A DNA stretch of 53,461 bases from a virus (Duplodnaviria > Caudoviricetes): positions 1 to 53,461 of the IMG/VR virus record IMGVR_UViG_3300006162_000017; one strand, written 5' to 3'. A model generated the notes under the pieces. That model was not told the origin of the DNA, did not search any database, and saw only the letters and a program-made list of their open reading frames with translations. The position numbers and the translations under genes are program-made. This document shows positions 18,691 through 47,573 of this stretch, piece by piece. Position 1 is the first letter of the stretch, and each line of letters opens with the position of its first letter.

Positions 18691-19307
18691 AAACAATTGC
18701 CAATGCTCTCTTCAGAGACAAAACGTTCAGTAGTAGGACAGGTGTTGTCACTTATCCTGAAGATCTTGCTGGTTATGATCTGCTTGTGCTTCATGGTGGC
18801 GAGGATATCTCCCCATCTATCTACGGCGAAACGGTACGAGCAGCAAGAGCCTCAGAAAATCCATCAACACGAGATAAGCTGGAAATTGCTTTAGCTCGTG
18901 AAGCTCTCAAACTCAAGATTCCTATTCTTGGAATCTGCCGTGGTGCACAGTTAATGTGCTGTCTACTTGGTGGGAAGTTATACCAAGATGTGCCTGCCCA
19001 TGGCAGCGGACAACACAAGCTGATTCTTCCGCAAGATCCATCAAGAGTTATCTTTAGCAATACCTGTCATCACCAGATGATGATTCCAAAGAATGGAACC
19101 ATGATCGCTCATGCTGGCCTTCACAAGGGCGCAAGATTCAAGGAGAATGGATATGTAGAGGAAGAGATATTCGAACCGGAAATAGTTTATTGGGGAGAAC
19201 ACAAGACATTAGCTGTTCAAGGCCATCCAGAATGGGATCATTCTGGTGACAAGAATGGCTTGTATTGTTTTGTCCGTGAGAAACTAAACGAACTCTTTGA
19301 GGTTTAA
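18687..19307 (+). CDS. class I glutamine amidotransferase (peptidase C26 type)
   Basis: GGEDI, GICRGAQ nucleophile elbow, QGHPE. Confidence 0.9.
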   Translation: MKTIANALFRDKTFSSRTGVVTYPEDLAGYDLLVLHGGEDISPSIYGETVRAARASENPSTRDKLEIALAREALKLKIPILGICRGAQLMCCLLGGKLYQDVPAHGSGQHKLILPQDPSRVIFSNTCHHQMMIPKNGTMIAHAGLHKGARFKENGYVEEEIFEPEIVYWGEHKTLAVQGHPEWDHSGDKNGLYCFVREKLNELFEV

Positions 19308-19308
19308 T

Positions 19309-20112
19309 ATGCTATTTATCAAGAGCGATCATAACAAGATAATAACCATTGGTTCAGACCCAGAGTTATTTCTTGTTGACAAATCTGGTAATTTTGTGTC
19401 CGCTATTGGAAAGATCCCGGGCACAAAGAATCTTCCCTATCCTGTCCCCAAGTTTGGGAGGGGATCTGCCCTTCAGGTAGATAATGTTCTTGTTGAATAC
19501 AACACTGCCCCAACAACAGATCTTGGAACTTGGGCAACTCTTCATACTGGGATGCTCGAACATATAAAAGATCGAGTCTCTGAATTTAATCTCCTCCCTA
19601 AGATTGTGGCGGCAGCAGAGATGCCTGAGTCTGAGCTAATGGATCCAGCAGCATGTGTCTTTGGCTGTGACCCAGACTACAATGCTTGGGAACTACAGCC
19701 CAATCCTACTCCTCGTAGTAATAATCCACGCCTTCGAAGTGCTGGTGGTCATATCCACATTGGGGTAGAGGGTATGACTGAATTAGAAAAGATCAATACA
19801 ACCCGAGCTATGGATCTGTTGGTCGGTGCATATTCAGTTGTGCATGATCCAGATACCAAACGTGCTGAGTTGTATGGCAGGCCCGGTGCCATGCGTCCAA
19901 AACCATACGGCATTGAGTACAGAACAGTCAGTAACTTCTGGCTAACTGATTCTGGACATATGGAAAATGTATTTAGTTTTGCGCAGACAGCGGCTAAATA
20001 CAATAGTAGATCTTTTCAACATCTAAAGGAGAAGGTCTATTCAATGTTCAGGAATAGAGACAAGGAGTTAGCAAAGCAGTTGGCAGCAGAAAATTTCGGT
20101 GTGGGGCTGTAA
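19309..20112 (+). CDS. phiEco32-like COOH-NH2 ligase type 2
   Basis: GSDPELF, QVDNVLVE, FGCDPD, RSAGGHIH, YGIEYRT. Confidence 0.88.
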   Translation: MLFIKSDHNKIITIGSDPELFLVDKSGNFVSAIGKIPGTKNLPYPVPKFGRGSALQVDNVLVEYNTAPTTDLGTWATLHTGMLEHIKDRVSEFNLLPKIVAAAEMPESELMDPAACVFGCDPDYNAWELQPNPTPRSNNPRLRSAGGHIHIGVEGMTELEKINTTRAMDLLVGAYSVVHDPDTKRAELYGRPGAMRPKPYGIEYRTVSNFWLTDSGHMENVFSFAQTAAKYNSRSFQHLKEKVYSMFRNRDKELAKQLAAENFGVGL

Positions 20113-20816
20113 TGGAATTCGATATCCAAGCTCTACAGAGGAAGTTTGGTGGAGTGATGGCAGCTCTATTTGTGGAGAATCCATCTAGTGACCCACCTTT
20201 TGAAAATATCTTCGGTTTCGTTGAGGATATTTCTCCTACTGATGGAAAGGGATCTAAACGAGGGGCACCATACGTTCAGGTTAGAGTGTTTCCAACATGG
20301 GAATCAAGAGCGTATGCTGTTTTAACAGAGATTGAAAACTACGTTCTTCCGGGCAGAAAGGTGGCAGAACTTCATCCTTTCTTTGTTAAACCTAAGCTAG
20401 AAATCTCCTACACTAGGGGGCTTGAAATTTGTCCTCCGAATAGACTTGAACAACATACTGAACTTGTCCTCTCCGTTTCTCTATGCCATCGTATTGTTGG
20501 TAAGAGCTTTCTAGCTGGGCCTGCATACGGAGCTAATTTCAAGCGGAAGTTGATTGCTTCTGGAGATAAAATTCTTACGGAGACTATTCCAAGAGAAAAG
20601 AAGTTTCCAACAAGTCCATATGAAACAGAAATTCCAGACGGACTTATAAAAGATTTTCAACATATCTCAGGACTTCTCTATATTCATAGAGACGATCTTT
20701 GTTACGGCCAAAGAACAATTGGAATACATAAGGGAAATAAAGAGTTTTGGATCCCCAATCCAGTGATTGCGAAGCTGGTATCTCCAGAGATTGAAAGATG
20801 GAAAACAAAAAGCTAG
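20112..20816 (+). CDS. hypothetical protein within the amidoligase operon
   Basis: 234 aa overlapping both neighbours. Confidence 0.65.
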   Translation: MEFDIQALQRKFGGVMAALFVENPSSDPPFENIFGFVEDISPTDGKGSKRGAPYVQVRVFPTWESRAYAVLTEIENYVLPGRKVAELHPFFVKPKLEISYTRGLEICPPNRLEQHTELVLSVSLCHRIVGKSFLAGPAYGANFKRKLIASGDKILTETIPREKKFPTSPYETEIPDGLIKDFQHISGLLYIHRDDLCYGQRTIGIHKGNKEFWIPNPVIAKLVSPEIERWKTKS

Positions 20817-21670
20817 ACCGGATCTATCCAAGGACATTAGCAAAGCTAACCGGACAAGTTGGGAGGCTATTTGATGTCAAGGAAAAATTTGGGGATCTTC
20901 CCAAGACATTCTTTTCTTCTTTTACCAAACCAATTGGGCTTGAGTTTGAAGTAGAGGGAATACAACCACATCTAGATTCTTATCGTGCCAGTCTTCAAAA
21001 TCCAGTATTAGCTCTCTGGGCCGTAGAGCAAGATGGTAGTCTACGTAATGGTGGAGTTGAATTTATTTCTTCTCCACTGGTCGGTGAAAACATTGATTAT
21101 GCGCTGCATGAGTTAGAAACAGTTTTTTCTATCTTGGAAGGTAAGTACAATAGACCTCCGAAAGCTTCTGTTAGGACCAGTATCCACATTCATGCAGATG
21201 TATCTGAATGGGGTATCAGGGATGTGTATTTATGCACGGCGTTGTATGCTTTATTTGAGCCTTTGTTCTTTAGTCTCCAGCCCCTAGAACGGATACTTAA
21301 CCCCTATTGCTGGGAGATAACAGACATTCTTCCAGAACAGTTGGGAGTTCATAAGGAGTTCAAATATTGTGCATTGAATCTAGCCCCAATTGAGCGGCAG
21401 TTCTCCATTGAATTCAGGCACGGGGCATTCAGTACGGACATGCGGGTTAATCGTAGGTGGATTCAAGTTGTGTGCAAGTTCATGAAGTTTGTTGAAGAAA
21501 ACAGAGAAAACTTACAGAAGATCATAGAGGATACTATACTTTACGAAGACTACTTTAAGCTATTTTTACGGGTGTTTGGTAAATCTTCCGTTCTTTTTAA
21601 CAAAGATAGCGTACTTTCAATGATGAAGGAAAACGCTATGTGGACAACTCTTGTATTGGAGCTATTATAA
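20798..21670 (+). CDS. putative amidoligase (Amidoligase_2 type)
   Basis: GLEFEVE, DGSLR, EFIS, TSIHIH, KYCALN, IEFRH. Confidence 0.85.
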   Translation: MENKKLDRIYPRTLAKLTGQVGRLFDVKEKFGDLPKTFFSSFTKPIGLEFEVEGIQPHLDSYRASLQNPVLALWAVEQDGSLRNGGVEFISSPLVGENIDYALHELETVFSILEGKYNRPPKASVRTSIHIHADVSEWGIRDVYLCTALYALFEPLFFSLQPLERILNPYCWEITDILPEQLGVHKEFKYCALNLAPIERQFSIEFRHGAFSTDMRVNRRWIQVVCKFMKFVEENRENLQKIIEDTILYEDYFKLFLRVFGKSSVLFNKDSVLSMMKENAMWTTLVLELL

Positions 21671-22908
21671 TGTGTGGACTTTGGGGAGTATTCAACAGCA
21701 GGCCAGAAGGGACGCTGATTCAAAATGACATTGATATGGCTTTGGATATGGCCGTATTCATGTCTCGAAGAGGGGATCATTCATCTGGATTTTGTACCAT
21801 CCCACGAGTTTCAACATACAAGGTGTTCCCATCTACCCCAAACATTGCCCGATGTGTTGGGTCTCCATACGTGATTATTCATAGTAGGGCCGGAACGGAC
21901 TATTTCAAGTGGGCCATTGAAAATGGGAATGCTATCTTTGGGCACGGCAGACGAGCTACTTCTGGGGCGATTAGTGTCAAAAACGCCCACCCATTCGAAG
22001 AGGGAGATTGGATCCTTGTCCACAATGGAACAATCAGGGATGGTGTAAAGGTCAATGAAGAAATCGAAGTTGACTCACATGCCTTATGTGTGAAGTTCAA
22101 TGAAGTTGGAATCAAGGATGCTTTGAAGACCGTCAATGGTGCCTATGCCATCATGGCTTTCCACAAGCCTACAAAGAAGATGTACTTTGCCCGCAATCAT
22201 GAGAGAGACCTCTGGTATTTCCGCCACGTTGGTATGTTCTATTTCATGTCGGAAGACTTCCTTCTTCGGGCTGCTCTCAAGAGAAACAATCACTACTACA
22301 AAGATGGGAACATAGACAACCCTGTACTACTTCCCCCAGAGAAGCTATATACCATCGAAGATGGTAAGCTGGTTTCAGTAGATGATCTGAAGAAGGAATA
22401 TCCTAAGAGAGATTATTACGGATCGGGTACTGTAGCTGAAACCAAGGTAACTAGAGATGATCTATTTGCCAGACGTAGGAAGAAGAATGAAGATGAGCCT
22501 CTCTTTATTAAGAAGGAAGAACTTCTATTATTCAAAGTTATTAGCATGGCATATCATGGAGAGAATAACTACGAGTATACTTGTGAGTCTTCTGATAACA
22601 TGGATGTGCCTGTGGTATTTCACCACAAGTATCAAAGACCGGATATTATCAATAAGTGGGGAGTAGTAGATAAATATACCCACAAACTTGTACAGAACAA
22701 GCCTGAAGATGAGTGTATCTTCGTTCGTTACGAAGAGATTGATTGGGATGAGGAAGAGAAGCTTATTGCCTGTACAGAATGCGCCGGGGCAATCAAGTTC
22801 GGAGAGGGAGAAATCAGGACTCTGGATAACAAACATATCTGTGGCGAGTGTGTTGAATCCTTTATGAGAAGTGGTGGTGGACTACCTAAGGAACAGGCAG
22901 CGGCATGA
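21670..22908 (+). CDS. class II (Ntn) glutamine amidotransferase with C-terminal Zn ribbon
   Basis: start MCGLWG via TAATG; RGDHSSG, GHGRRAT, NAHPF, HNG, DS; CTEC...CGEC. Confidence 0.88.
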   Translation: MCGLWGVFNSRPEGTLIQNDIDMALDMAVFMSRRGDHSSGFCTIPRVSTYKVFPSTPNIARCVGSPYVIIHSRAGTDYFKWAIENGNAIFGHGRRATSGAISVKNAHPFEEGDWILVHNGTIRDGVKVNEEIEVDSHALCVKFNEVGIKDALKTVNGAYAIMAFHKPTKKMYFARNHERDLWYFRHVGMFYFMSEDFLLRAALKRNNHYYKDGNIDNPVLLPPEKLYTIEDGKLVSVDDLKKEYPKRDYYGSGTVAETKVTRDDLFARRRKKNEDEPLFIKKEELLLFKVISMAYHGENNYEYTCESSDNMDVPVVFHHKYQRPDIINKWGVVDKYTHKLVQNKPEDECIFVRYEEIDWDEEEKLIACTECAGAIKFGEGEIRTLDNKHICGECVESFMRSGGGLPKEQAAA

Positions 22909-23603
22909 GACCCCATATCGTAACGTACAACCTGTATAGCCAGTCAGCGAAGTTGATTCAAAAGCATCTCAGCAACATTCTTGGATACAAGGTGTATCGT
23001 GGAACCACACCGAAAGACAATCGCTTTAATCTCGTTTGGGGATTACCTAACGGAATTGGAGCGAACAAACTTAGAACTTTTGAAGTATTTAGAGAGCATG
23101 GAGTACAATCCCCTCCATTCACTACGAGCCGTGCCACTGCCGAACAATGGGCTATGCAGCATCCAATTGTTGCTAGAAAATTGCTTCGGTCTTCAGGAGG
23201 AAAGGGAGCAGTATATATCGAACGAGGGGGAGCGGTTATTGATGCCCCTTTGTATGTAAAATATATCCCAAAGAAGAAAGAGTTCCGTGTCCATGTTCAT
23301 AACGGGAATATCATTCTTGTGCAACAGAAGCGGAAGCGTTCGGGCACTAGCCCAGATACCAAGATCCGCTCTCACGAGAATGATTGGGTATTCTGTATCA
23401 ACAATATTACTGAGCCAGAAGATCTTAGGTCGGTGGCGCTGGCTGCATGTGCTGCTGTGGGTCATGGTGGCGGAGTGGATATCATTTGGAATCAGCTACA
23501 AAATCGCTGCTATGCTCTCGAAGTCAATTCTGCTCCGGGACTTAGTGACAGTTCAGCTTTGACATACGCGAATGTATTTGTTCAGGAACTCCAAAATGGA
23601 TAA
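22905..23603 (+). CDS. ATP-grasp ligase (RimK-like)
   Basis: SSGGKG, EFRVHV, GVDIIW, LEVNSAPG. Confidence 0.88.
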   Translation: MRPHIVTYNLYSQSAKLIQKHLSNILGYKVYRGTTPKDNRFNLVWGLPNGIGANKLRTFEVFREHGVQSPPFTTSRATAEQWAMQHPIVARKLLRSSGGKGAVYIERGGAVIDAPLYVKYIPKKKEFRVHVHNGNIILVQQKRKRSGTSPDTKIRSHENDWVFCINNITEPEDLRSVALAACAAVGHGGGVDIIWNQLQNRCYALEVNSAPGLSDSSALTYANVFVQELQNG

Positions 23604-28997: not shown

Positions 28998-29122
28998 TAC
29001 CTACTGATCCAGATAGTATTGAGTATATTTTGAGTACAGCCAACATAGATTGGCAAGAGTTTTACGAGGAGCGCGCTATTGACCTACTTGGTGATAGATT
29101 CAGAGAACACTACGTGGAGTAA
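28994..29122 (+). CDS. small acidic hypothetical protein
   Basis: ATGA overlap; 42 aa. Confidence 0.4.
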   Translation: MIPTDPDSIEYILSTANIDWQEFYEERAIDLLGDRFREHYVE

Positions 29123-30197
29123 AGGTGATCCGCATGACCAAAGAAACAAAAACGTCTGCTGGTCTTTCAAAGAGTCAGGTAAAGAGGCTGTCTGTACAAA
29201 TGAAAAGAAAGAAGTTAGAGAAGCAGTACAAAGAGCTGGGACGCTCGTTGGATTCCACCTTGGGTATGACCTTGAATGGCTTTGGAAAGAAGGAATAGAT
29301 ACAGAAGGTAAGAAGTTTTTTTGTTGTCAGGTAGCTGAATTTGTACTCAATTCGTACACTACACCATATCCGTCATTAAATGACGTAGCCCAAAAATATT
29401 TAAACAGGCAGAAACTGGATGTAGTAGAGAAAGAGTACTGGTCCAAGGGAATAAATACAGATCAAATTCCTTGGGACATATTAGCCGAGTACGCACGCCG
29501 TGACGTTGAACTTACGGAAGCTGTGTACTTAAAACAACTAAAATTAATTCCGGCAAGTAAACAGAAGTTAATTAGTTTGAAAATGCAGGACATGGCAGTA
29601 CTCGCAGAGATGCGCTTTGCTGGCATGAAGTTTGATAGGGAATACGCTGAACAACAAGCAACGAGAATCCGACAAGAGATTCAGGAAATCCAATCAAGAC
29701 TTAACTTACTCCATAATATCCCTTCCTTTAATTGGGCTTCTGGGGATCATTTATCTGCCCTTCTCTATGGTGGGGAGATTGTTGAGAAAAAGAGAGTTCC
29801 GATAGGAAAGTACAAGAGCGGAGCGAAGGTCGGTGAAAATAGATACCAGATCCAAGAAGAAGTTCATTCTCTTCCCAGATTGTATAAACCAATTCGTGGA
29901 AGTGAATTAAAAAAAGGAGGAGTGTGGTCAACTGACGAAGATACTCTTAAGAAGCTAGACGATGGCACAGAACTGATCGGAGGTATCTTAAAGTTACGGG
30001 AGTTGTCCAAACTTGTCGGAACATACTATGAAGGAATTCCAGAACTGGCTAGAGAGTCCTTTTGGCCTGAAGGCTACCTGTATGGCAATTTTAATCAGTG
30101 TGTTGCTGCAACTGGTAGGCTTAGCTCTAGCCGTCCTAACCTTCAGAACATTAGTGGAGACGCTCTAAAGATGTTTACATCGAGATGGGAGGAATGA
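29079..30197 (+). CDS. family A DNA polymerase, part 1 (3'-5' exonuclease, thumb, start of palm)
   Basis: ExoI DSE, ExoII YDL, ExoIII YARRD, FNWAS, STDE, TGRLSSSRPNLQN; GAGGAG plus TTG. Confidence 0.9.
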   Translation: MTYLVIDSENTTWSKGDPHDQRNKNVCWSFKESGKEAVCTNEKKEVREAVQRAGTLVGFHLGYDLEWLWKEGIDTEGKKFFCCQVAEFVLNSYTTPYPSLNDVAQKYLNRQKLDVVEKEYWSKGINTDQIPWDILAEYARRDVELTEAVYLKQLKLIPASKQKLISLKMQDMAVLAEMRFAGMKFDREYAEQQATRIRQEIQEIQSRLNLLHNIPSFNWASGDHLSALLYGGEIVEKKRVPIGKYKSGAKVGENRYQIQEEVHSLPRLYKPIRGSELKKGGVWSTDEDTLKKLDDGTELIGGILKLRELSKLVGTYYEGIPELARESFWPEGYLYGNFNQCVAATGRLSSSRPNLQNISGDALKMFTSRWEE

Positions 30198-30460
30198 TGC
30201 GGTGTGATGAATGTAAGTTTAGTAAGGTTAAGACTACTTTAGCTCCTGATAAGGAACTGGTTTCACAGAGGTTTTGTATGTTCAATCTGCCATCTGTCCA
30301 GCTCATTCCTACCCAACATGGGCCAGCTAGGATCAGTTTCAGGCCAGAAGTAGAAGATGATGATTTCTGTAAGGAGTTCGTAAAGAAACCCGGAAAGGCC
30401 AATGTACATGCAATCTTCAATGAATCAGAGTCAGCAGGAACAGGCCCTGTCGCTGAGTAG
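30194..30460 (+). CDS. small Cys-containing protein between the polymerase halves
   Basis: CDEC...FCMF...PEVEDDDFCKEF; GGAGG RBS. Confidence 0.65.
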   Translation: MMRCDECKFSKVKTTLAPDKELVSQRFCMFNLPSVQLIPTQHGPARISFRPEVEDDDFCKEFVKKPGKANVHAIFNESESAGTGPVAE

Positions 30461-30752
30461 TCTGTACATCCAGACGTTTGGTGCTAGGACCTATCTGGAT
30501 GCCTTTAAGGATGCTTTCCCAAGAGAGTGTCAGAACCTTGTAGATGTAATTATAGGGCAACAGAAGAAAAAGGGAGTTTTGCTAGATGCTGGTAGTTTGC
30601 GACGCAAGCCAGTTAGAGTGGAGGATACTGCTCCTGCTGAGCGGAGACCAAGTAGGTATCCGGGAGATCGTGGAGGGGCAGGACGTACACGGAAACAACC
30701 AGAAGGAACTGAAGCTGCCGTCACGCCTGATAGCAAAGATCTTCCTGTTTAG
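30402..30752 (+). CDS. hypothetical protein between the polymerase halves, overlapping part 2
   Basis: open frame covering the rest of the gap. Confidence 0.45.
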   Translation: MYMQSSMNQSQQEQALSLSSLYIQTFGARTYLDAFKDAFPRECQNLVDVIIGQQKKKGVLLDAGSLRRKPVRVEDTAPAERRPSRYPGDRGGAGRTRKQPEGTEAAVTPDSKDLPV

Positions 30753-31299
30753 GACTATCTTCAGGGGGTCTGGGTGGGCGTTTGCCAAGGACAATGATTT
30801 CAGGCATATCAGCGATGATCCGAAGTTCTGGGATGAACGGAATGAAGCTTTCTATAGAAAATACTGGGAGATAGACAGATGCCATCAGACGTGGGCAATG
30901 CAAGTGATGAAGAACCATTTCATGTCCGGACCCTCGGGGGCGACATGGGAGATCTCGCCAAAAGAAGATGGCAACATACCATGGACGCAATTGACCAACT
31001 ACCCCGTTCAGGGAACAGCGGCGGACTTAATGTCAATAGCTCGTGTTTCCCTAAGGAACCGCCTCCGGGCTGGGAAATTACAATCATTCTTGACCAGCAC
31101 GGTACACGATTCACTTATAGTGGATGGGCCTGCATCTGAGCTTGACAAAGTAGCAGAATTAATGTACAATACGTTCTATAGTCTTGTACCTAATATGAAG
31201 AAATTGTGGGGAATAGAGAGTCCAATCCCGTTTCCCTGTGAAGTAAAGTACGGCCCTAATCAAGGAGATCTGGTTAAGTATGGAAACGATCCACATTGA
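30586..31299 (+). CDS. family A DNA polymerase, part 2 (motifs A, B, C)
   Basis: DASQLEWR, RLIAK, NYPVQGTAAD, TVHDS; GGGAG RBS. Confidence 0.9.
   Translation: MLVVCDASQLEWRILLLLSGDQVGIREIVEGQDVHGNNQKELKLPSRLIAKIFLFRTIFRGSGWAFAKDNDFRHISDDPKFWDERNEAFYRKYWEIDRCHQTWAMQVMKNHFMSGPSGATWEISPKEDGNIPWTQLTNYPVQGTAADLMSIARVSLRNRLRAGKLQSFLTSTVHDSLIVDGPASELDKVAELMYNTFYSLVPNMKKLWGIESPIPFPCEVKYGPNQGDLVKYGNDPH
31142..31170 (+). promoter_or_regulatory. intragenic sigma70 promoter
   Basis: TTGACA-17 nt-TACAAT inside pol part 2. Confidence 0.65.
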
Positions 31300-37516: not shown

Positions 37517-37935
37517 ACTCCTGTTTTAATCTGTTCTGCGAGCCTTTGCGCGCGGTTTGGAACCTGCTTTGCCCAAAGACTATTCAACATATACGCACTA
37601 GCGTTAACCCAGTTCTGTTCTTTGAATGCTTCTATGGTGTTCGAGAACTGTAGGAATCTACTGATACCTAGATTGAATACCATGTTGCATACTGCTCCCT
37701 GCCGTACAAAATCCATCCCATGATACCATGAGTAAGGATCTAGTTGATCTTCTACTTTAGCGATATCTGCTGCAAGCCAGTCCAGAGCTTGTTGATAACT
37801 GATACCATCCGCAAACTGTTGTAACTCCTCCGCGCTCATTAGGTGCCCAACACCTATTGTCCAATTCCCTAGCGTATCCTTATAGGGCTTTAGTACTAGC
37901 CCCTCATCTCTGATTAGCTGCGTTTGCAGGTCCAT
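37507..37935 (-). CDS. endolysin (T4-type lysozyme, GH24)
   Basis: DEG..LKPYKD..G.WTIGVGH, NMVFNLG, SLWAKQVPNRA. Confidence 0.9.
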   Translation of the reverse strand: MDLQTQLIRDEGLVLKPYKDTLGNWTIGVGHLMSAEELQQFADGISYQQALDWLAADIAKVEDQLDPYSWYHGMDFVRQGAVCNMVFNLGISRFLQFSNTIEAFKEQNWVNASAYMLNSLWAKQVPNRAQRLAEQIKTGVWV

Positions 37936-40900
37936 AATAATTTTGTACTCCCAATAGATAATTTCTCAGTCTCATGTACTTTTCGGCACCTTCGAGGTTA
38001 CGTGCGCCTAAAGCAGCCTTCTGCTGAAAGTCTGTATTCCATTTAATAACCAAATCTCGGAAGTGGTTATTAGACATTAGTGTTCTTGGATCTCCGCCAA
38101 GGCTTACGTACTTTTGGATATAGTTCGTAGCCCCGGACATATCATTATTACGGATAGCAGAATCTAGAGAACTGGTAAGGGAGTCTCTACGTTCCTGTAA
38201 AGACTGCTCATTCTGTTTGGATGCGAAGTCTCTTTCCTTTGTAGCTGCTTCCTTGGTACCCATAAATCCCCAGGAACGGATGTTCTCCTCGTTGGTCATT
38301 AGACCTCCGGGGGCTTCTCCACGCCTGTAGTTACCTTCTCCGGGATTGTTGGGGGAACTAGATACCCCAGCAGGGGAAGTGAACCAGCTACGGGTGTTTA
38401 TGGCATCTGGTAAATCCTGCCCAAAAGCCTTGCCAGTTTCCACCATACCGCGCATACCATAAGGAAGCTGATTATAGATCATCTTATGGAGATTGTCTTT
38501 TGATGGGTTTGATATGTAATCCCATACTGGGGCAGTAGTATTCTTTAGTTCTGATAGGAATGGGAATATGCCCGTTAACGATGGATCTACGATAGTACCT
38601 GATTCAAGAGAACTAGCAAAGTTAATCCCTGTCCAGGGAGATACAATACCTCTCTGGGCCTCAAAGGGAAGATGTTGCATTACGAAGTTCTTGGGACTCC
38701 ATTGGGCGAACTCTGGGGATACGAACTTTGTGGGAACCATATCTCTAAACCATCTGTATAGCTGGTCCAAGGATTCGAACCCAACAAATCCCATAATGCC
38801 CGCGTAGGCAAGTTGTATACCAGACATAGCCAGAAGAGGAGCATAGTTTTTCTTTTCTATTGCAAGTTTAGCATAATCATGGAACTGATTAAGGAAGTTA
38901 ATTTCAAACTGACGTAAGGTAGATAGGCCTGTACCAACTAAACCAAGCTTGGTGAATGCTAGGGCACGGTCGGTGTGACGAAATGAGCCCATCGTTTCGG
39001 TTGTCTGTCTGTTGGCATCAGAAAACAAATTCAGCAGATTTTCGTGATTGCTTAGATCTCCGTATTTGCCTGACTGTCTCAAATGGTGTACGAACGACAT
39101 GAAGGCATTGACACGGGCTACGCGTTCGCCTTCTTGCATGAAGTACCCACCAATGGCCTGTGACTTCTTTACGAAAGCGTCCGATACACTACGGCCTAGT
39201 TCTCCAACATCAGAGAACGGATTGTTCGTAGCTACCTGATTGGTTACAAGGAAGTCCGCTGCTTTTTTAGCAATGTCAGTAAGCTTGACTGTATTCCCAC
39301 CATTAAGGCCTTTACTATAATGATTAATAAGAATAGCTTGAGAATCTCGCATCCCATGAACTAATGTCTCCAGTGGATTGTGTGAATACCCTTCAGCAGA
39401 CAGCTTCATATGTCTGGGCATAGTAAAGAAAGGCTGGAACAGTCCATTAACCAACAGGTGCTGTGGCTTCCAGAATCCAAGTGCCTTGAGGTAGATAAGG
39501 TTCTTGGAGAACTTAAGGGCTTGAGTACCTGCTCTCAGGTCAATGGGAACGTTCCTGATACCGGGGATAGTATCTATCATCTCTCCCAGTCCCTTGAATA
39601 CGGCATTCTCAAATGCAGAGACAAGCTTGTCCTTACCAAAGCCCATCTGGACTCTGGCATGCTCGGCAAGGTATTCTAGTGTGTTGGGGTGTGACTGCTT
39701 TAGTTCTGGATCGCTGAGGATCTTGGAGGAGGCGTGTACAGCGTCCTGCATACTGGCCCACTTGTATCCTTGGGACATGTGATCCAGTTGGGTACCCCAC
39801 CAACTGACTGTATCTTTTCTAGCATCCAGCCAAGGTCTATCTCCTACAAAGAATCTGCTTCCTTGTTTAGGTTCGAAATGCTTGGAGAAGTCATTAACGT
39901 TCTTGCCTTCTTTGGCATAGAAATCGTTTATGAAGTCAGCAAAGGCTTTGGTGTGAGGACTATCCTTACCAAAAGCAGTAATGAAGTCTTTGTATGTGGT
40001 CATGTAATCCTGTCCCTTGTCGTAGAGTTGTCTACGATAGTCAACCTTTTCGTTGACTTGGTAATCAGGATTGTTCTTCTTTATGTACTCGATACCCTTA
40101 CGGACTTCAGCCTTGCTGTGTCCAGCAACCCAGCCTACGTTAACAGGCTGCCCATCAATCATCTTGGTTACTTCCGCCTTCCATGGACCAGACCAGTGAG
40201 AGGTCATATACTGATCTCTTGGCTTGATCGGATCCATACCGTTAGCTAGTCTCTTCTCATTGATGAAGTCCAGATTCTTCTTCTGGGTTTCTCTCATCAT
40301 GTCATAGACTTTCTTCTCGGCAGGAGAAAGCTTGGCCTGTTCCTTTAAGTCTGGGGCGTTGTCAAGATCCTCTTTAATCATTAGATCTTTGACGTTCTTT
40401 AGACTTTTCCAATTAGAATCAGGAATAAGGTTCTTAATGTCTTCTCGGAGTTTATTAACAACGGTATCTTCGTAATAATGAGCAAGAGCATTAGCCCTAC
40501 CATACAACTTACCAAACATATAGATAGCAGGATTACGCTTAAGATTAGCATATTGCTCATTCGAGATAGTGAAGTGCTGCTGTACAAACTCCCCAACAGT
40601 CTTTGGTAGGTCCTTTACTCCTAGCATTGCTGCCTTAATCATCTCTGGTTTAGGGGCAGGCTCTACATACTTCTCCTGCATTTTTCCTAGACCAGGCGTA
40701 GCAGACACAGATTTGTCTATTGGATCTTCAGAGATACCTTTTTCATTAGCTTGTCTGGCAGCAGATTGCATGGGAGTTTCCATATGATCTCTGGCTTTGA
40801 TACCAGCTTTATGGAAATCATCCTCTATTTTATTGAAATTCTCTGCATGATATTGAGCAATGGATTTTGTGATGTCTATGAGCGGATTCACTACATAACG

Positions 40901-42739
40901 AGAACCATCAAATACTTTAGACACACCATTGACGATAGTTTGGTATCCGTCAATGCCACGGATCTTTATCTTCTGCAGTAATCTTTGGAAATTGGGATTG
41001 GAAAAGGTCTCGCTGAGAAGTTCTCGTATGTTGCTTAAACCATACACTGGACCTCTCTTTACGTTAGTTCCTTTGAATTCGTAGGAAGTGCGCTGCCAAG
41101 GATCTCCCTCGAACTCTGATCTTGGAGAACCAGCATCCTTGATTCTAGCTAGAATGGTTTCTAGATCTTTATTGAATTTATCAATAGTGGGATTGCTATA
41201 CTTTGTACCAACAAGTCTTAACACTCTTGAAGTGGCAGCATGGAGCATTTCGTGCATAAACACACGATCATTAGTATACCCCTTACCTAAGGAAATTGAG
41301 TGTGTATCGGGATAGTATGATCCTGCGTTACCAGTTTCATTGGCATGCCCATCAAACTTACCAAGCTGTACGTATACGTCAAGGGATTTGAAGATATCTG
41401 GAAATTTCTGGAGCATCTTGGCAGCATAACGGAGATACCCATCAGAATTACTAGAGATCCAGTCCATAGCTTTAAATGGATCTATTCTACCCTGGTCATC
41501 TATTAGATGAGAAAGGTCTTTGCCTCCAGTGGAATTCCAATGGAGATTGGCCTCTTCTCTATCGTCCGGGTGCATGAAATCGCCCTGACCATGCTCATCC
41601 ACCCAAGCTTGTTCTCCGGGATTTAATTCCCTACCAAGGAAAGAACTATAGTGTGGACTGGCGATAGAGGTATCCTTACCTGGGATTCCACCACCTGGAT
41701 TACCTCCCTCAGCTTCCATGTCCTTAGCCTGGGCTTCATGTTCGGTATCCTTCCTAGTGATATTATCATGGGAGGTACCTTCTGGAAACAGGGACATTTG
41801 GTTTCCAGGTTCAAACCCTCTGTGTAATAGAGAACCTTGTTCTCCATACATCTCTGGACGTTCTGCTTCCCAGTCTCTGGGGGTAGTCTTGTCTGCGAAT
41901 AGATCCCCCTGGTGATAACCCCCCTGTAAAGGAAGTTCTAGCTGGGATGGGGGTGGAGTACCTGCTTCAGGAGAAGTCGTCTCTGGGGCCGTTTTAGAGG
42001 GTTCTGAAGGGGGTTTTTCACCCCAGAGAGCATGAGCAATTCCGCCAAAAATGGCATCATTAACCATGCTTTCCATGTCATTCCAAGCAGGTTGTTTTTC
42101 TGCAACATCATTGTAACCTTGGGACTTGAGGTATTGTTTGGTAGCTCCTCTGACGGCAGCATTTGCTGCTACGTTAGCTCCGATGGTTGGTAGGAGTCCT
42201 TTGGGAAGAACAGCACCGGCAGCTAGATTACCTCCAAATTGCATCTCTCCAGAGGTTAGGGCCGTAGTAGGATCAACCCCCTGATTAGAGAGTTGATCCA
42301 TGTGCTCGGTAGCTCCACCACCCATGGCACCGATGGCATTACCTGCCCCGGCACCAAGAGATGTTACACCTGCAATAAGGTTACTAGCCTTCTCCCAATT
42401 ACCTTGGGGGGACATTCCCTGATCTCCAAAGAAATCATGAATGCCTTTGTTAAGAGATCCTGGTTCTCCAGCATTCTCTTTACGAACAGCTTCGAAGAAG
42501 TCGTCTGCTGTTCCTTGTGCACCAAGCGCGCCAGCTACACCACCTATACCAAGTGCAGCACCCTTCAATATACTTTGCCCGCCCATAGCAATGCCTTGAC
42601 CAACAGCACCTGCTGCTTGTCCTAGAGCACTGGGTTGTTTGGGGAATAACTTATCCGCTACCGCCTGAATGTCTTCAGGGGAAGGTTGTTGATCGAAATT
42701 TACGCTATGCCCGGAATCGAAATTAACCGTGTAAGGCAT
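37904..42739 (-). CDS. large internal virion/ejection protein with zincin-like motif
   Basis: 1611 aa, last of three non-tail virion genes; HEMLH. Confidence 0.75.
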   Translation of the reverse strand: MPYTVNFDSGHSVNFDQQPSPEDIQAVADKLFPKQPSALGQAAGAVGQGIAMGGQSILKGAALGIGGVAGALGAQGTADDFFEAVRKENAGEPGSLNKGIHDFFGDQGMSPQGNWEKASNLIAGVTSLGAGAGNAIGAMGGGATEHMDQLSNQGVDPTTALTSGEMQFGGNLAAGAVLPKGLLPTIGANVAANAAVRGATKQYLKSQGYNDVAEKQPAWNDMESMVNDAIFGGIAHALWGEKPPSEPSKTAPETTSPEAGTPPPSQLELPLQGGYHQGDLFADKTTPRDWEAERPEMYGEQGSLLHRGFEPGNQMSLFPEGTSHDNITRKDTEHEAQAKDMEAEGGNPGGGIPGKDTSIASPHYSSFLGRELNPGEQAWVDEHGQGDFMHPDDREEANLHWNSTGGKDLSHLIDDQGRIDPFKAMDWISSNSDGYLRYAAKMLQKFPDIFKSLDVYVQLGKFDGHANETGNAGSYYPDTHSISLGKGYTNDRVFMHEMLHAATSRVLRLVGTKYSNPTIDKFNKDLETILARIKDAGSPRSEFEGDPWQRTSYEFKGTNVKRGPVYGLSNIRELLSETFSNPNFQRLLQKIKIRGIDGYQTIVNGVSKVFDGSRYVVNPLIDITKSIAQYHAENFNKIEDDFHKAGIKARDHMETPMQSAARQANEKGISEDPIDKSVSATPGLGKMQEKYVEPAPKPEMIKAAMLGVKDLPKTVGEFVQQHFTISNEQYANLKRNPAIYMFGKLYGRANALAHYYEDTVVNKLREDIKNLIPDSNWKSLKNVKDLMIKEDLDNAPDLKEQAKLSPAEKKVYDMMRETQKKNLDFINEKRLANGMDPIKPRDQYMTSHWSGPWKAEVTKMIDGQPVNVGWVAGHSKAEVRKGIEYIKKNNPDYQVNEKVDYRRQLYDKGQDYMTTYKDFITAFGKDSPHTKAFADFINDFYAKEGKNVNDFSKHFEPKQGSRFFVGDRPWLDARKDTVSWWGTQLDHMSQGYKWASMQDAVHASSKILSDPELKQSHPNTLEYLAEHARVQMGFGKDKLVSAFENAVFKGLGEMIDTIPGIRNVPIDLRAGTQALKFSKNLIYLKALGFWKPQHLLVNGLFQPFFTMPRHMKLSAEGYSHNPLETLVHGMRDSQAILINHYSKGLNGGNTVKLTDIAKKAADFLVTNQVATNNPFSDVGELGRSVSDAFVKKSQAIGGYFMQEGERVARVNAFMSFVHHLRQSGKYGDLSNHENLLNLFSDANRQTTETMGSFRHTDRALAFTKLGLVGTGLSTLRQFEINFLNQFHDYAKLAIEKKNYAPLLAMSGIQLAYAGIMGFVGFESLDQLYRWFRDMVPTKFVSPEFAQWSPKNFVMQHLPFEAQRGIVSPWTGINFASSLESGTIVDPSLTGIFPFLSELKNTTAPVWDYISNPSKDNLHKMIYNQLPYGMRGMVETGKAFGQDLPDAINTRSWFTSPAGVSSSPNNPGEGNYRRGEAPGGLMTNEENIRSWGFMGTKEAATKERDFASKQNEQSLQERRDSLTSSLDSAIRNNDMSGATNYIQKYVSLGGDPRTLMSNNHFRDLVIKWNTDFQQKAALGARNLEGAEKYMRLRNYLLGVQNYYGPANAANQR

Positions 42740-44301
42740 TACCTACCTCCAGACTTTAGCCTTATTGCTTCTCCAACAGCAGCCAGTTGAACCATCGCTT
42801 CCTGGCTTTGGGGATTCTTTTGGAATAGGTCCCTAGCCTGCATGAACATCTGCTTAAGGGTTGGGAGATCATAGTTCTGAGCAAACATATAACCATTCCT
42901 GCGGGCAGCAATACCAGCCTCTTGTTGAGACATAGCTTGCTGTTGAGGAGCCTGAGGAGGCTGCCCCTGAGGAGCTTGTGGTGCTCCTTGTGGTGGAGCA
43001 GCGACCGCGTTTCCAGCAGCGCCAGTTTGACCAGGATTATATCTACCTTGGCTCATTAACTGTTGCTTTTGATTCAATAGCATTGACATTTCATTACGGA
43101 TAGAACTTTGATCGTTAGCGTATCTAGGATCGGATAGTTCTTGTCTTAAGATGTTAAGCCTGGAATCAATGTCATTTCCCTGGACAGGGAAGTTAGCTCT
43201 GAGATCAGATTGCGGCTGTGCTGGCTGTGGAGGTTGTGCTTGAGGCATTGGCTGCCCTTGAGGACCACCAACAGGAAGACCTGCCATGTTGGGCGTAGCC
43301 GAAGGAGAACCTCCAGGAGCAGCGCCTGGGGCAGTGACTGTATAGCTTTTGCCATTGACTGTACCACTTTCAACGCCAGGAGCAGCTCCACCCCCACCAC
43401 CAACTCCGGGTGGAGTAGCCCCAGTGGGACCGGGCATACCCATCATACCATAGAGCATGTACTGTTGCATGAATGCTTGGAATGCTTTGATGCTATTGTT
43501 ACGATCTGTGGCGTCTTGGGTTTGTCTAATGGCATAAGCTTCTCCATTAGCATCCCCGTTTTGATGTGCTTCAAACGCCTTGGATGCCCAGAATTGACCC
43601 GCCTTTTGGGGGTCAGATTTAAGATCAATTTGATGTTGCGCAGCTTCGAAATCCATTTTCTTTTGTGCAAGCTTTTCTTCCATAGTAAGCTGCATACCAG
43701 TACGCTCAGTAGCTCCTGATTGCTCAATAGCAGTCTTCATAAGCTCTGGATTAAGTTTTAGGAGACGTTCTGCATTAGCTTGATGCCCACCACCACTATA
43801 TTGAAATGCCGCCTGTGCTGGACCTAGACTAGCTTGTTGAGATTTAGCAGCAGCCACTGCTCCGCCCTGCCATCTATTAAGAGCATCTGCTGGATCTATA
43901 TTGTATTTCTTGGCTAATGCCATTTGGGCTTGTTCTGCTTGGGCAGGATTCATATTATCAAACACAGGAGCATTCTTAATGTATTCCTGATCTGCTAGAT
44001 TCCTACGTTCAGATTCTGTTTTGGCTAGTTGACCTGTAAGATCTGATGTAGCTGCTTGGATTCGTAGATTAGGATCTAGGCCAGCAGTAACATCATTCTT
44101 AAGTCTTTCCTCACGAGTTAATTCTTGAGTTTGCCCAGTTTGAGCTTGTGTATTAGCTGTAGTGGCTTGGGCATTAGCCATGTTTTGTTGCCAAGCTTGT
44201 TGCCCCATTTGAGCTGCTTGGGCTGGACCATATAGTGGATTAGCTATGGGAAGGCCAAGGCCATTCCCCATTCCACCAAGATCTGCAGTAGATACTGTCA
44301 T
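42739..44301 (-). CDS. internal virion/ejection protein
   Basis: Gln/Ala/Gly/Pro-rich; start MTVSTADL just after previous stop. Confidence 0.65.
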   Translation of the reverse strand: MTVSTADLGGMGNGLGLPIANPLYGPAQAAQMGQQAWQQNMANAQATTANTQAQTGQTQELTREERLKNDVTAGLDPNLRIQAATSDLTGQLAKTESERRNLADQEYIKNAPVFDNMNPAQAEQAQMALAKKYNIDPADALNRWQGGAVAAAKSQQASLGPAQAAFQYSGGGHQANAERLLKLNPELMKTAIEQSGATERTGMQLTMEEKLAQKKMDFEAAQHQIDLKSDPQKAGQFWASKAFEAHQNGDANGEAYAIRQTQDATDRNNSIKAFQAFMQQYMLYGMMGMPGPTGATPPGVGGGGGAAPGVESGTVNGKSYTVTAPGAAPGGSPSATPNMAGLPVGGPQGQPMPQAQPPQPAQPQSDLRANFPVQGNDIDSRLNILRQELSDPRYANDQSSIRNEMSMLLNQKQQLMSQGRYNPGQTGAAGNAVAAPPQGAPQAPQGQPPQAPQQQAMSQQEAGIAARRNGYMFAQNYDLPTLKQMFMQARDLFQKNPQSQEAMVQLAAVGEAIRLKSGGR

Positions 44302-44302
44302 A

Positions 44303-45982
44303 TTAGAACCACCCTGCAATAGAATTAATAAGGTTAGAACCACCTGAATAGAGATTATTTAATCCTCCTGCTATTCCTCCAAGTTGTCCAATCATCCCCG
44401 CCGTACCACCACCGGAACCATTAGGAGTTCCTAGAATACTATTGATTCCATTGGTTGTAGAAGCAGCATTTGCCGTATTACCAAGAGCAGTACCAAAGGC
44501 ATAATCAGCACCATATTTAGCCTGATTACCAAGGAAGCCCTGAGCTACGTTGTTAACAGAGTTTAGATAGTTATCGTACGTCTGTGCTCCAAAGCCCATC
44601 ATCTTCTGAGTGTAGTCTATTGGGTTGCCATTTGTACCTGCAGCGTTCTTGCCTGCATTAACATTGTTACCATATAGACTAGCTAGAGATTGATAGAAAG
44701 GAGATTGGAAAAACTGGTTTGGGTTAGATACTGTACTATTTACTGTGTTTACCGAAGGTTGGGCTATATTACCAGCATTGGTATACATACCCATTAAATT
44801 ATTGGCAATGTTCTGCTGTGCACGATTTCCAGTAATGGAATTATATAAGCCAGACCCACCGTTTTGCCATAGCTGTTGTAAACCATTACCCACTTGCTGT
44901 ATATTTTGGAAGATATTACTATTTCCATTAGTAGAAGTTTGATCTGCAACTTGTCCTCCAAGTGAAGTAGGGCCAGTAGTTGGAGAAGGGCCATATCCAA
45001 AAGGATTATTAGGATCTGGGACAGAGGGATTGTTAAGTCCGTAAGGATCAGAAGGAGTTCCTCCATAAATATTTGGAGGATTCTGGTTCTGAAACATTAT
45101 AGAATTACCTGAATTTGGTGTAGATAGACTCATATTTGATGTCCCTGAATTTCCTAGTTGTGATGCAATACCTCCAACTCCTCCTGCCCCAGCTCCTATT
45201 TGTCCTAATGTAGGGCCCCCAGTTTCTGCTGGGAGAGAAGTTCCATTAGTAACTATCGTACCTAAATCTGTTGGTGGAGCGGCACTTGGCATACCAGCAG
45301 TAAAATCTGGACCTGAGCCAAGCATAGTAGATGGTGTGTCTCCAGCAACAGACGGCGCTGAATTAGCCGCTCCGGTCGCAGCATCCCCGGCTAAACCATA
45401 ATAAGCCCCGGCTACTGCAGGCAGCACTTGATCTACTGTTTGCACACCATTACGCTGCCACCAGGATTCTCCCCCGTTCTGACTTTGTATATTACTAGGA
45501 GTGTAATATCCCGTGGAAGGATCTAGTGAATAAGAAGCTGTTGTAGTGTCTGCGGTACCTGGACGCTGATAATAATATGTTCCCCCTGTCATGGAGGGGG
45601 CATTGAAACTGGTGTGAGGTACATTGCTAGTTGGATTATATGCGGTGTCACTACCAACACCTAACATTCTATTAGCTGGAGAAGCTGTGTCAGCGGCAGT
45701 CCAAGTAGGCATAAAAGTGCCTCCTTGTGTAATGCCCTGATTTGTAGTACTGTATCCTGCAAGCCCTTGCCCGTTATTCCATTGAGATTGTGTAAATATA
45801 GGTAAAGGAGTATTTCCCACCATTGTCTGGTACATCCCAGTCTGGGGGTTCATATTAACGCCAAAATTAGCGTTAGATCCTGATCCAGAAACTTGTAATC
45901 CATTGCTGTATGGATTACCTTGGGTTACTTGGGGAGGACCAGAGATCCCAGTGGAATTACCATACATTGACTGTAGGCTCAT
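44303..45982 (-). CDS. internal virion/ejection (pilot-like) protein
   Basis: Gly/Asn/Ser/Thr-rich, Gly-rich amphipathic C-terminus. Confidence 0.6.
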   Translation of the reverse strand: MSLQSMYGNSTGISGPPQVTQGNPYSNGLQVSGSGSNANFGVNMNPQTGMYQTMVGNTPLPIFTQSQWNNGQGLAGYSTTNQGITQGGTFMPTWTAADTASPANRMLGVGSDTAYNPTSNVPHTSFNAPSMTGGTYYYQRPGTADTTTASYSLDPSTGYYTPSNIQSQNGGESWWQRNGVQTVDQVLPAVAGAYYGLAGDAATGAANSAPSVAGDTPSTMLGSGPDFTAGMPSAAPPTDLGTIVTNGTSLPAETGGPTLGQIGAGAGGVGGIASQLGNSGTSNMSLSTPNSGNSIMFQNQNPPNIYGGTPSDPYGLNNPSVPDPNNPFGYGPSPTTGPTSLGGQVADQTSTNGNSNIFQNIQQVGNGLQQLWQNGGSGLYNSITGNRAQQNIANNLMGMYTNAGNIAQPSVNTVNSTVSNPNQFFQSPFYQSLASLYGNNVNAGKNAAGTNGNPIDYTQKMMGFGAQTYDNYLNSVNNVAQGFLGNQAKYGADYAFGTALGNTANAASTTNGINSILGTPNGSGGGTAGMIGQLGGIAGGLNNLYSGGSNLINSIAGWF

Positions 45983-46413
45983 TACTTACCTGTAAAATAG
46001 AATCCCTGGAGGGATATGTTTGTTGACACAGTTATATTACCGCCTAGATTAATAAGTTGCGCTGTGTTAGTCCCACGCTGGAGGATCAGATTGCCCAATG
46101 AAGCGCCAGTCGTGTTGTTTATTAATGGTACGGCCGTAATCATCTGGACTGTTCCAGTAACGTAGGCTAATTGCTTCGGAAGATTTATATATTGGTTCGT
46201 GTTCCATGCAGTTACTCCAGTCATCTGGATGTTAAAGAAAAGACCAGTTGTTACAGCCCTTGTCCAGTAAGCATATGTTGTTGTAGATAATGCCCCTGTT
46301 GGGAAACTACTTGCTGGGATTGGATTCCATATACTAGAGGAAATGTTATCCAGCAGGGTACGCCAGTTCTGGTCTGATATCTCTATAGTGCCATCTGGGT
46401 TGCTGAAGTTCAT
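45982..46413 (-). CDS. putative tail-associated protein
   Basis: 143 aa beta-rich, coupled to neighbours. Confidence 0.55.
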   Translation of the reverse strand: MNFSNPDGTIEISDQNWRTLLDNISSSIWNPIPASSFPTGALSTTTYAYWTRAVTTGLFFNIQMTGVTAWNTNQYINLPKQLAYVTGTVQMITAVPLINNTTGASLGNLILQRGTNTAQLINLGGNITVSTNISLQGFYFTGK

Positions 46414-47573
46414 GCTGTACCCATATTGTAGACGATATCAAATGCCCTGTGATGGGCAGGTCCAATACCAGTCATATCAATTCTGAAAGATCCTCTACGG
46501 AATCTGGTTACGTTACTCCACTCAATGGTATTCTGATAGCCTTCTGCGGAGGGGTTCTTAGTAGTACACTGCACGAAGTTCGTATACGTAGGATCATTGG
46601 AATACCAGAGAGTAAGGCTATTCTGCCCATAGTCTCCGATAGAGTATACCTTAGCAATATGCTTCCAGTAGTTAACGTCCATATCAATTACTTCGGTATA
46701 ATAACTAGCAGTTCTGGAAACTGTATCTTCCAAGTCCGCAGTACAAATCTTTAGCACGGAAGAATTACCAGAACCTGTTACATAGTAGGGACGTTGTGTA
46801 TTTGGCTTAACCTGTGTTGCTAGGACAATGTTGGATCTGTATTGATCCCCATTATTTATGTCCGTCATCGTTACTGTCCACCAAACTTCTTCTTCGGGGA
46901 AATAAGCTATGGCTTGGTTTGTACCAGTGAAAGAGATAACTATCATGGTATGAGTATCTATCGGAAGTAACTCAATTCCAATAATAGACCCAGAAGTATT
47001 GGTATTATAATAATTCAACACTTCACGGATATAGTGCGTACCAACAGGCTTAATCATGTACTTGGACATGACGTAAACATCTAGATAGTTATTATCGTTC
47101 TTGCCGATAAAGTACATATCGTCTTTATCTTTGGCTATGGTATTGGTTAAACCATAAGCCATTAAACCTAATTGCTTGGAGAAGATAGGCTGCCTTGCTA
47201 ATGGGGAGCCTAATCCATTACCGGCATCATAAAAGAATTCTATGGAGTTTGCTAGGAATGCTACCAGATAGTTGTGGTGCTTCTCCATCCACTGGATTTC
47301 ATCTGGATTGATCTGGGTGATAGCATAGCTAGTAGCATCCCAGTTGGTAAATGGATCTCCTGAATACTGGGAGTTGTAGATATAGTTGTAAGGTCCATTA
47401 CCACCAGCGTCAGATGGAGCAGTGGCGTTGAGCGTAGCAGCTACAAAGAAATAGTTATCTAGATAAACCATTCCCCTGTCTGGAGCTATATACGGCGGTT
47501 GGGTAGGCTGCATATAGTAGTTCGTTGGGGACGAACGGAATGTATATGGAGCTACAACATATGGAGAAGCCAT
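46410..47573 (-). CDS. tail nozzle/DNA-stabilisation protein (P22 gp10-like), C-terminal part
   Basis: VYLDNYF, IYNS..DP..W, NYLVAF...SIEFFYDAGN..GSPL. Confidence 0.7.
   Translation of the reverse strand: MASPYVVAPYTFRSSPTNYYMQPTQPPYIAPDRGMVYLDNYFFVAATLNATAPSDAGGNGPYNYIYNSQYSGDPFTNWDATSYAITQINPDEIQWMEKHHNYLVAFLANSIEFFYDAGNGLGSPLARQPIFSKQLGLMAYGLTNTIAKDKDDMYFIGKNDNNYLDVYVMSKYMIKPVGTHYIREVLNYYNTNTSGSIIGIELLPIDTHTMIVISFTGTNQAIAYFPEEEVWWTVTMTDINNGDQYRSNIVLATQVKPNTQRPYYVTGSGNSSVLKICTADLEDTVSRTASYYTEVIDMDVNYWKHIAKVYSIGDYGQNSLTLWYSNDPTYTNFVQCTTKNPSAEGYQNTIEWSNVTRFRRGSFRIDMTGIGPAHHRAFDIVYNMGTA

Follow-up and report, generated by a model that had tools for sequence, protein, structure and literature searches.

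Why should the largest protein encoded in a phage's virion module carry, within a single linker, a row of peptides that look like docking motifs for the bacterial sliding clamp, DnaN? The question is raised by P0001, a protein of 1611 amino acids (aa) encoded by an uncultured virus of the Caudoviricetes (IMG/VR record IMGVR_UViG_3300006162_000017). This record of 53,461 bases, the whole of which was analyzed and is referred to as the window, represents a complete virus (CheckV completeness estimate 100%). The answer that we favor, at a probability of about 0.55, is that the P0001 linker acts as a multivalent clamp tether, its peptides being genuine docking sites for the DnaN of the host. P0001 itself is probably, as judged from its gene position and profile matches, a large ejection or internal virion protein of the 'polyvalent' kind, from a short-tailed phage.

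Clamp-binding-like peptides and their conservation

An earlier note on this DNA had singled out five peptides of P0001 as similar to clamp ligands, and translation of positions 37904-42739 confirmed where they lie, with four of them falling within 53 residues (Table 1). Matches were scored with a strict set of patterns (Q.[DES][LM]F or Q[LM].L.[LF]) and a loose set (Q..[LMI][FLM] or Q[LMIV].[LMI].[LFM]). The proposed likeness stood for QLELPL, QGDLF and QMSLF under the strict set and for QGSLL under the loose set only, and it fell away for QGDFM. The last of these peptides falls between two short helices of a predicted structure, where model confidence is low, and its assignment to a DENGIP...NLWGDEL module was rejected, as the hidden Markov model (HMM) of that module had no match in P0001. 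Going by these patterns, the linker of P0001 holds four short linear motifs of the kind that binds the bacterial beta-clamp, of which three are good and one is weak.

All four loose matches of P0001 are inside the 53-residue cluster. At least four such matches in any 53-aa window were obtained in 2 of 20,000 shuffles of the whole protein, and at least four in the linker (aa 243-400) in none of 20,000 shuffles of that segment. Across the phage proteome (62 open reading frames (ORFs), 16,383 aa) there were 14 loose and 3 strict matches, of which the cluster accounts for four and three, respectively.

The earlier note had placed the peptides in a Pro/Glu-rich linker, and structure prediction indicated that this segment is disordered. 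In a model of aa 230-700 made with AlphaFold2 (AF2; 28-row alignment, mean predicted local distance difference test score (pLDDT) of 61), nearly all of aa 230-363 was predicted with pLDDT below 50 and without secondary structure. The linker (aa 243-400) is composed of 12% E, 12% G and 11% P and has a net charge of -19. The motif cluster ends about 90 residues upstream of the core of a zincin-like metallopeptidase domain, which starts near aa 409.

QGDLF, QMSLF and QLELPL conform to published clamp-ligand patterns, QLELPL by way of the generalized hexapeptide form QLxLxL. The consensus for binding to the beta-clamp is QL[S/D]LF (PMC9690074, PMC3716654); Pol II has QLGLF, UmuC has an internal QLNLF followed by aspartates, and Pol IV has the hexapeptide QLVLGL, in which LGL replaces LF (PMC3716654). 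A phage example is MuC of phage Mu, a member of the Mor/C family, which binds the host clamp through QHDLF and QPDLF and whose family consensus is Qx[D/E][L/M]F (PMC12867686). Near-consensus motifs of this form are likewise found in phage proteins of the P0001 family: P0002, a close homolog that is 86% identical to P0001, has QPDLF, the very sequence of the validated motif at the C-terminus of MuC (PMC12867686), and P0060 has QHDLF at the equivalent place. MuC differs in being a small transcription factor that is made after infection and has its motifs at both ends, whereas in the P0001 family the motifs are internal, number four or more per protein at most, and sit on a carrier that would be packed in the virion. 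With the cellular clients Pol II, Pol IV and UmuC the family shares the use of both pentapeptide and hexapeptide forms, and in part of its matches an acidic residue follows the motif, as in UmuC; it differs from them in being multivalent, in often having G, R or Q at position 2, and in that the carrier is without a DNA-enzyme domain. No description of clamp-binding motifs in virion or ejection proteins was found in the literature searched. A study of polyvalent proteins (PMC5512222) does not use the word 'clamp' in its main text, and the lone occurrence of the word in a review of ejection proteins (PMC8954989) appears to be the 'clamping' of the genome by gp16-C.

A scan with aa 1-1200 of P0001 against 1.84 billion representatives returned 499 proteins at E<=1e-3. 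The homolog statistics that follow rest on 150 listed among these matches, most of which resemble P0001 in the C-terminal domain only. Comparison with P0002 showed 6 of 23 residues identical (26%) in the Pro-rich spacer at aa 243-265, and 53 of 61 (87%) in the motif block at aa 266-326, which exceeds the identity of the zincin domain (192 of 260). All 13 motif anchor residues were kept: QLELPL is QLSLPL in P0002, QGDLF is QPDLF, and QGSLL and QMSLF are unchanged. The earlier note had named motifs lost from a diverging linker as the pattern that would speak against its idea, and the opposite was found.

Further from P0001, Q[LM]ELPL and QGDLF recur in many homologs, and QMSLF is also present in P0114. 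In an alignment of a 10-sequence subfamily (24-37% identity), Q-x-E-L-P-L and, 22 residues on, Q-x-x-L-F are invariant, and apart from M1 these motif columns are the sole invariant ones in the first ~480 residues. Among the 149 listed homologs, aa 200-399 account for 75 of the 97 strict matches, and reversed patterns give 5 there; the rate of strict matches is 3.2 and 1.8 per 1000 aa in the two bins covering this region and about 0.1 in most others. After 13 shorter sequences were dropped, 136 homologs of at least 1100 aa remained, and their aa 151-500 region held 84 strict matches in 58 proteins, 21 of which had at least two. Over 1000 shuffles of these regions the count averaged 3.8 matches and reached 13 at most, so the enrichment over shuffled linkers that the earlier note had put forward as a check was borne out. 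A looser set for family-wide use (Q..[LM]F or Q.[DES][LM].[LF]) gave 136 matches in 78 proteins, with at least two matches in 42 and at least three in 13, compared with a mean of 13.8 and a maximum of 25 matches, in a mean of 13.1 proteins, after shuffling. When W was allowed at position 5, 90 of the 136 homologs matched. The true pentapeptide pattern ranked first of 72 permuted patterns (59 matches vs a mean of 2.2) and the true hexapeptide pattern first of 144 (25 vs a mean of 1.7), and the runners-up overlap the same strings as the true patterns.

With Q..[LM]F imposed alone, position 3 was D in 44 and E in 14 of the 90 matches in the linker region, whereas outside that region it was acidic in 6 of 30. 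This bias reproduces the published Qx[D/E][L/M]F (PMC12867686). The residue that follows F is D in 29 of the 90 matches. The pentapeptide (...LF) and hexapeptide (...LxL) forms are both present in the family, often in tandem; the spacing between them ranges from 5 to 29 residues, and the pair is duplicated in one member. About one third of the family, for example P0035, P0038, P0053 and P0069, has at aa ~200-460 a conserved module of ~33 residues, R[IV]DENGIPIRADLSME..NPLQRNLWGDEL (31 seeds, 52 HMM matches among 152 proteins), which is not found in P0001. The module has Q..LF-type motifs as neighbors, and in some members its closing QRNLW is swapped for QRDLF, QRNLF, QARLF or QTHLF. As a control family, 70 PhiM1-type ejection proteins, which are 47-100% identical to the PhiM1 protein P0153 and hence less diverse, gave no strict match and three loose ones in 15,789 linker residues. 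Given that the peptides recur in over half of the distant relatives of P0001, we conclude from these comparisons that they are very likely functional.

P0001 as a putative ejection protein

The P0001 gene is the largest and last in the virion module. Late genes are on the minus strand of the window, with early and replication genes on the plus strand, and the gene order around P0001 runs from a P22 gp10-like head-closure gene through genes of 143, 559 and 534 aa to P0001 and then lysozyme. The same order is found in Alcaligenes phage vB_Af_QDWS535, whose gp19 (P0152, L001:8029-11601; 1190 aa, annotated as hypothetical) was the only cultured homolog found. This protein has the C-terminal domain in common with P0001 (tblastn 8e-61; profile 1.5e-223), and QVQMF, QMDMF and QGQLF are found in it at about aa 200-290. 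The zincin HExxH is absent from it; a lysozyme gene is adjacent and a ribonucleotide reductase (RNR) gene is on the opposite strand.

As a single sequence P0001 had no match in Pfam, NCBIfam or the PDB (phmmer), and PHROGs gave only weak matches to families of unknown function. A profile of 32 members matched the PDB entries 23sg_S ('gp10', 5.8e-11), 9sfn_G ('internal virion protein', 1.5e-10) and 8vb2_A (4e-8), the last being the tetrameric ejection protein of PhiM1 (PMC11440229), and all three matches are confined to the HExxH domain. It also matched anthrax lethal factor (1.1e-4). A Foldseek search with the AF2 model placed lethal factor and 8vb2_A on top, all matches being weak (E>0.1; lethal factor, which heads the list, E 0.13, template modeling (TM) score ~0.2). 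These matches to solved proteins, together with the gene position, agree with the description of P0001 in the earlier note as an injected virion protein. Residues H496, E497 and H500 are near-invariant in the 28-sequence alignment, and two glutamates downstream are candidates for the third zinc ligand, which in such domains is a Glu of the second helix (PMC5512222). By its profile matches, the domain is the 'MPTase' of injected polyvalent proteins, the kind that has been linked to lethal factor. Neighbors of P0001 in the ESM Atlas carry the polyvalent-protein families LPD38, LPD39, LPD22, PBECR3 and MuF_C, which we treat as a lead only.

On either side of the linker and zincin are two larger regions. 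The N-terminal region (aa 1-242) is 88% identical to that of P0002, has weak matches to PHROGs of unknown function, and contains glycine-zipper-like segments at aa 50-78, 120-140 and 168-192 (Kyte-Doolittle peaks of 1.2-1.4). The C-terminal domain includes a hydrophobic segment at aa 1299-1324 (38768-38845; hydropathy peak 1.55).

T7 gp16, PhiM1 gp48 (8vb2), 9sfn_G and 23sg_S resemble P0001 in being encoded by the largest and last of the internal-protein genes. The layout of P0153 is also like that of P0001, with a Gly-rich hydrophobic N-terminus, a Pro-rich linker, a zincin and a large C-terminal domain. In contrast to P0001, the PhiM1-type proteins lack strict clamp-like motifs, and T7 gp16 has a transglycosylase where P0001 has the zincin (PMC8954989). 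The PhiM1-type proteins P0154, P0157 and P0159 have been named inconsistently in public records, as 'diguanylate cyclase/phosphodiesterase', as 'internal virion protein with endolysin domain' and as 'internal virion protein C', and the first two names look like mislabels of a zincin-bearing protein. The polyvalent proteins with a zincin-like MPTase (Iyer et al., 2017, PMC5512222) share with P0001 an injected giant protein, HExxH with a downstream Glu, the link to lethal factor, and a variable 'cargo' N-terminal to the zincin; in P0001 this cargo would be a set of short motifs and not a domain. In the N4 virion RNA polymerase (vRNAP), whose C-terminal part is counted among these polyvalent proteins, the polymerase domain lies upstream of the HExxH C1 domain (PMC13434306). 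This parallel is architectural only, as the family profile had no significant match to N4 vRNAP or its C-terminal part (whole-sequence score of -12.5).

Possible partner and effect of the linker

A domain search of the complete genome found no DnaN domain, phage clamp and pocket-only mini-clamp included. On this basis a phage-encoded clamp was rejected as the partner of the motifs, and any clamp partner would be that of the host. The main reason for preferring DnaN is that both the ...LF and the ...LxL forms occur, and another pocket would not obviously be expected to take both. We infer the partner, the reach of the linker into the cytoplasm and the effect of binding as follows. Injected P0001, probably in few copies per virion, would tether the DnaN ring of the host on the cytoplasmic side, and the likeliest effect would be to hold host clamps and their riders at the ejection complex or on the genome as it enters. 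Such holding fits the position of the motifs N-terminal to the zincin, as the N4 RNA polymerase lies upstream of C1. The gp16 of T7 has its N-terminal part in the periplasm, where an extended 'molecular tape' (residues 157-228) binds gp15, and gp16-C is modeled as reaching the cytoplasm (PMC8954989). P0001 is synthesized in the cytoplasm late in infection and could, for that reason, also affect host clamp traffic at this stage, before assembly.

Other effects had been proposed in the earlier note, among them the sequestration of DnaN. The clamp pool of a cell numbers some hundreds. The protein analogous to P0001 is tetrameric in PhiM1 (PMC11440229), and the T7 core contains four copies of it (PMC8954989). 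Four copies would bring ~16 motifs per virion, which makes it unlikely that the pool is drained at entry, and draining would be a less likely effect than the holding of clamps. Nor does the gene content point to a role in replicating the genome: the phage has its own DnaB-like helicase and its own family A polymerase, the latter split in two, and no clamp.

A bolder arrangement, which we regard as a long shot, is that a ring of peptides on the ejection complex (~4 subunits with 3-4 motifs each) would hold the beta-clamp coaxially at the exit of the DNA channel, with the incoming genome end threaded through it. Phage DNA would then enter 'clamp-loaded' without a clamp loader, and the ring could mark it early for host nick sealing and repair enzymes or, as in Mu and T4, for transcription stimulated by the clamp. 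This would make the family the counterpart of N4: in the part of the protein where N4 injects an RNA polymerase, these phages would inject hooks for the host's DNA-tracking ring.

A number of observations weigh against the clamp tether. Zero matches even to the looser set were found in 58 of the 136 homologs, and these showed no hidden [DE][LM]F signal (6 observed vs 7.6 expected), so that the motif is dispensable for the family; among fairly close relatives, P0007 has no motif and P0003 no clean one. On a quick tree of the C-terminal 950 residues (FastTree, 138 rows), motif presence required 38 changes, compared with 44 (minimum 37) with shuffled labels, indicating that the trait is labile or that N-terminal parts have been swapped. 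Position 2 of the linker matches is often G, R or Q instead of the consensus L, and QGDFM, with F at position 4 and M at position 5, is a misfit that reads QGDYM in P0002. In one subfamily a motif stands ~21 residues ahead of the R[IV]DENGIPIRADLSME..NPLQRNLWGDEL module; this fixed distance and the swaps of QRNLW mean that the motif could belong to a larger unit instead of being a free peptide. If the linker is periplasmic after ejection, as the N-terminal part of T7 gp16 is, it would not meet DnaN at entry. Finally, no relatives that could point to a host were found via P0001 or A6 in the genome contigs and viral contigs.

Some of the same features would be expected if the motifs were assembly peptides for a phage partner, as 'molecular tape' or in docking to the portal or core, with their clamp likeness a coincidence. 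We consider this unlikely, for all that in T7 gp16 the N-terminal domain is followed by an extended segment that binds a partner, in the periplasm (PMC8954989), that the subfamily motifs keep a fixed spacing (22 residues from one another and ~21 from the conserved module), and that three candidate partner genes lie directly upstream. Qx[DE][LM]F and Q[LM]ELPL are unchanged in proteins of 20-25% identity, whose partners must have diverged alike, while the number (1-4 or more) and spacing of the motifs vary. The 58 motif-less members would be odd for a structural interface, and PhiM1-type ejection proteins of like architecture do without the motif. The occurrence of both ...LF and ...LxL is, moreover, an equivalence known for the clamp cleft. 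It is this equivalence, along with the match to every constrained position of the clamp consensus in both forms, that also makes it improbable that the peptides are true short linear motifs for some other conserved host protein with a hydrophobic groove taking Q-x-acidic-L-F. Conservation over very diverse phages does argue for a conserved host target, and the frequent departure from L at position 2 and the common W variant QRNLW (35 in the region vs 2 elsewhere) would sit well with a different groove. To our knowledge, and in the literature searched, no other bacterial hub protein uses a motif of this type.

Autoprocessing provides a further alternative, in which the motifs would be recognition or cleavage sites of the protein's own zincin and the N-terminal part would be freed before packaging or after injection. 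Such a role has been proposed for the zincin domains of polyvalent proteins (PMC5512222), and the motif cluster does lie upstream of the zincin domain. Motif presence is, however, independent of HExxH, being found in 22 of 44 homologs with it and 56 of 92 without it, and such motifs are missing from the PhiM1-type proteins, which have the same zincin; we therefore hold autoprocessing to be very improbable. The same independence disfavors the proposal of the earlier note that the linker aims the protease at the replisome, which would not be a general role when most motif-bearing members (56 of 78) have no HExxH. As for chance, the motif is short and degenerate, its pattern was chosen after the sequence was seen, and a low-complexity linker containing Q, L and F could yield look-alikes. 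Shuffles of the linker, of the protein and of the 136 homologous regions, the reversed and permuted patterns, and the control family all reject this, and we give it next to no credence.

Ejection proteins are the first phage molecules in the cell, and beyond the building of a channel their cytoplasmic roles are largely obscure. If the clamp tether is real, a conserved multivalent array of clamp-docking motifs on an ejection protein would make a new class of clamp client, and would give the virus a new hold on the central DNA-tracking hub of the host before phage gene expression. Clients that use clamp motifs are already known; the new part would be an injected virion protein that carries an array of them, and the idea of polyvalent injected proteins would be widened by a 'short-motif cargo'. 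With 499 representatives at 50% identity the family is large, and its one cultured member, from Alcaligenes phage vB_Af_QDWS535, makes the idea directly testable.

Gene neighborhood and other features of the record

Coordinates of the features of P0001 and of its neighbors are given in Table 1. The 534-, 559- and 143-aa neighbors upstream of P0001 had no family or PDB match in searches of PHROGs, Pfam and the PDB.

Table 1. Features of P0001 and neighboring genes, with positions in the window
Feature	Position	Strand	Basis
P0001 gene, giant ejection-type (polyvalent) virion protein, probable; 1611 aa	37904..42739	-	ORF and translation
N-terminal Gly/Ala-rich region, aa 1-242	42014..42739	-	17% G, 15% A; hydrophobic glycine-zipper-like segments
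Predicted disordered linker, aa 230-363	41651..42052	-	AF2 model
Pro-rich spacer, aa 243-265, fast-evolving	41945..42013	-	6/23 identical to P0002; pLDDT below 50
QLELPL, aa 266-271, hexapeptide-type clamp-binding-like motif	41927..41944	-	Translation; strict match
QGDLF, aa 277-281, pentapeptide-type clamp-binding-like motif	41897..41911	-	Translation; strict match
QGSLL, aa 301-305, weakest of the four, L at position 5	41825..41839	-	Loose pattern only
QMSLF, aa 314-318, pentapeptide-type clamp-binding-like motif	41786..41800	-	Translation; strict match
QGDFM, aa 385-389, unsupported as clamp-binding-like motif	41573..41587	-	Fits neither pattern
Zincin-like metallopeptidase (MPTase) domain, aa ~409-660	40760..41515	-	Core pLDDT 82-97; profile matches
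HEMLH, aa 496-500, zinc-binding and catalytic motif	41240..41254	-	H496, E497 and H500 near-invariant in 28 sequences
E573...E577, candidate third zinc ligand (gluzincin-type)	41009..41023	-	Both near-invariant in alignment A4
Large conserved C-terminal domain, aa 661-1611	37907..40759	-	Common to all 150 listed homologs
Phage lysozyme gene, directly downstream of P0001	37507..37935	-	Pfam Phage_lysozyme at 1.9e-15
Three genes upstream of P0001 (534, 559, 143 aa), candidate further internal/ejection proteins	42739..46413	-	Position only
P22 gp10-like head-closure gene	46410-47573	-	PHROG 578 at 1.7e-15; Pfam Phage_stabilise

Two ORFs (29079-31299, plus strand) make up the split family A DNA polymerase, one of 372 aa with the exonuclease and the start of the polymerase and one of 237 aa with the remaining polymerase, and a 116-aa ORF (30402-30752) overlaps the gap between the halves. 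No clamp-like motif was found in either half. Elsewhere on the plus strand (18687-23603) is a cluster of genes for class-I/class-II glutamine amidotransferase, phiEco32-like COOH-NH2 ligase, amidoligase and ATP-grasp-like proteins, which resembles the peptide/amide-ligase systems of phiEco32-type phages. The record also has four tRNA genes, Trp-CCA (11410-11485), Arg-TCT (14567-14643), Leu-TAA (15576-15658) and Met-CAT (15894-15970). Among the head genes, a GroES/Cpn10-like protein of 112 aa is encoded at 2945-3283 on the minus strand (Pfam Cpn10, 5.2e-5).

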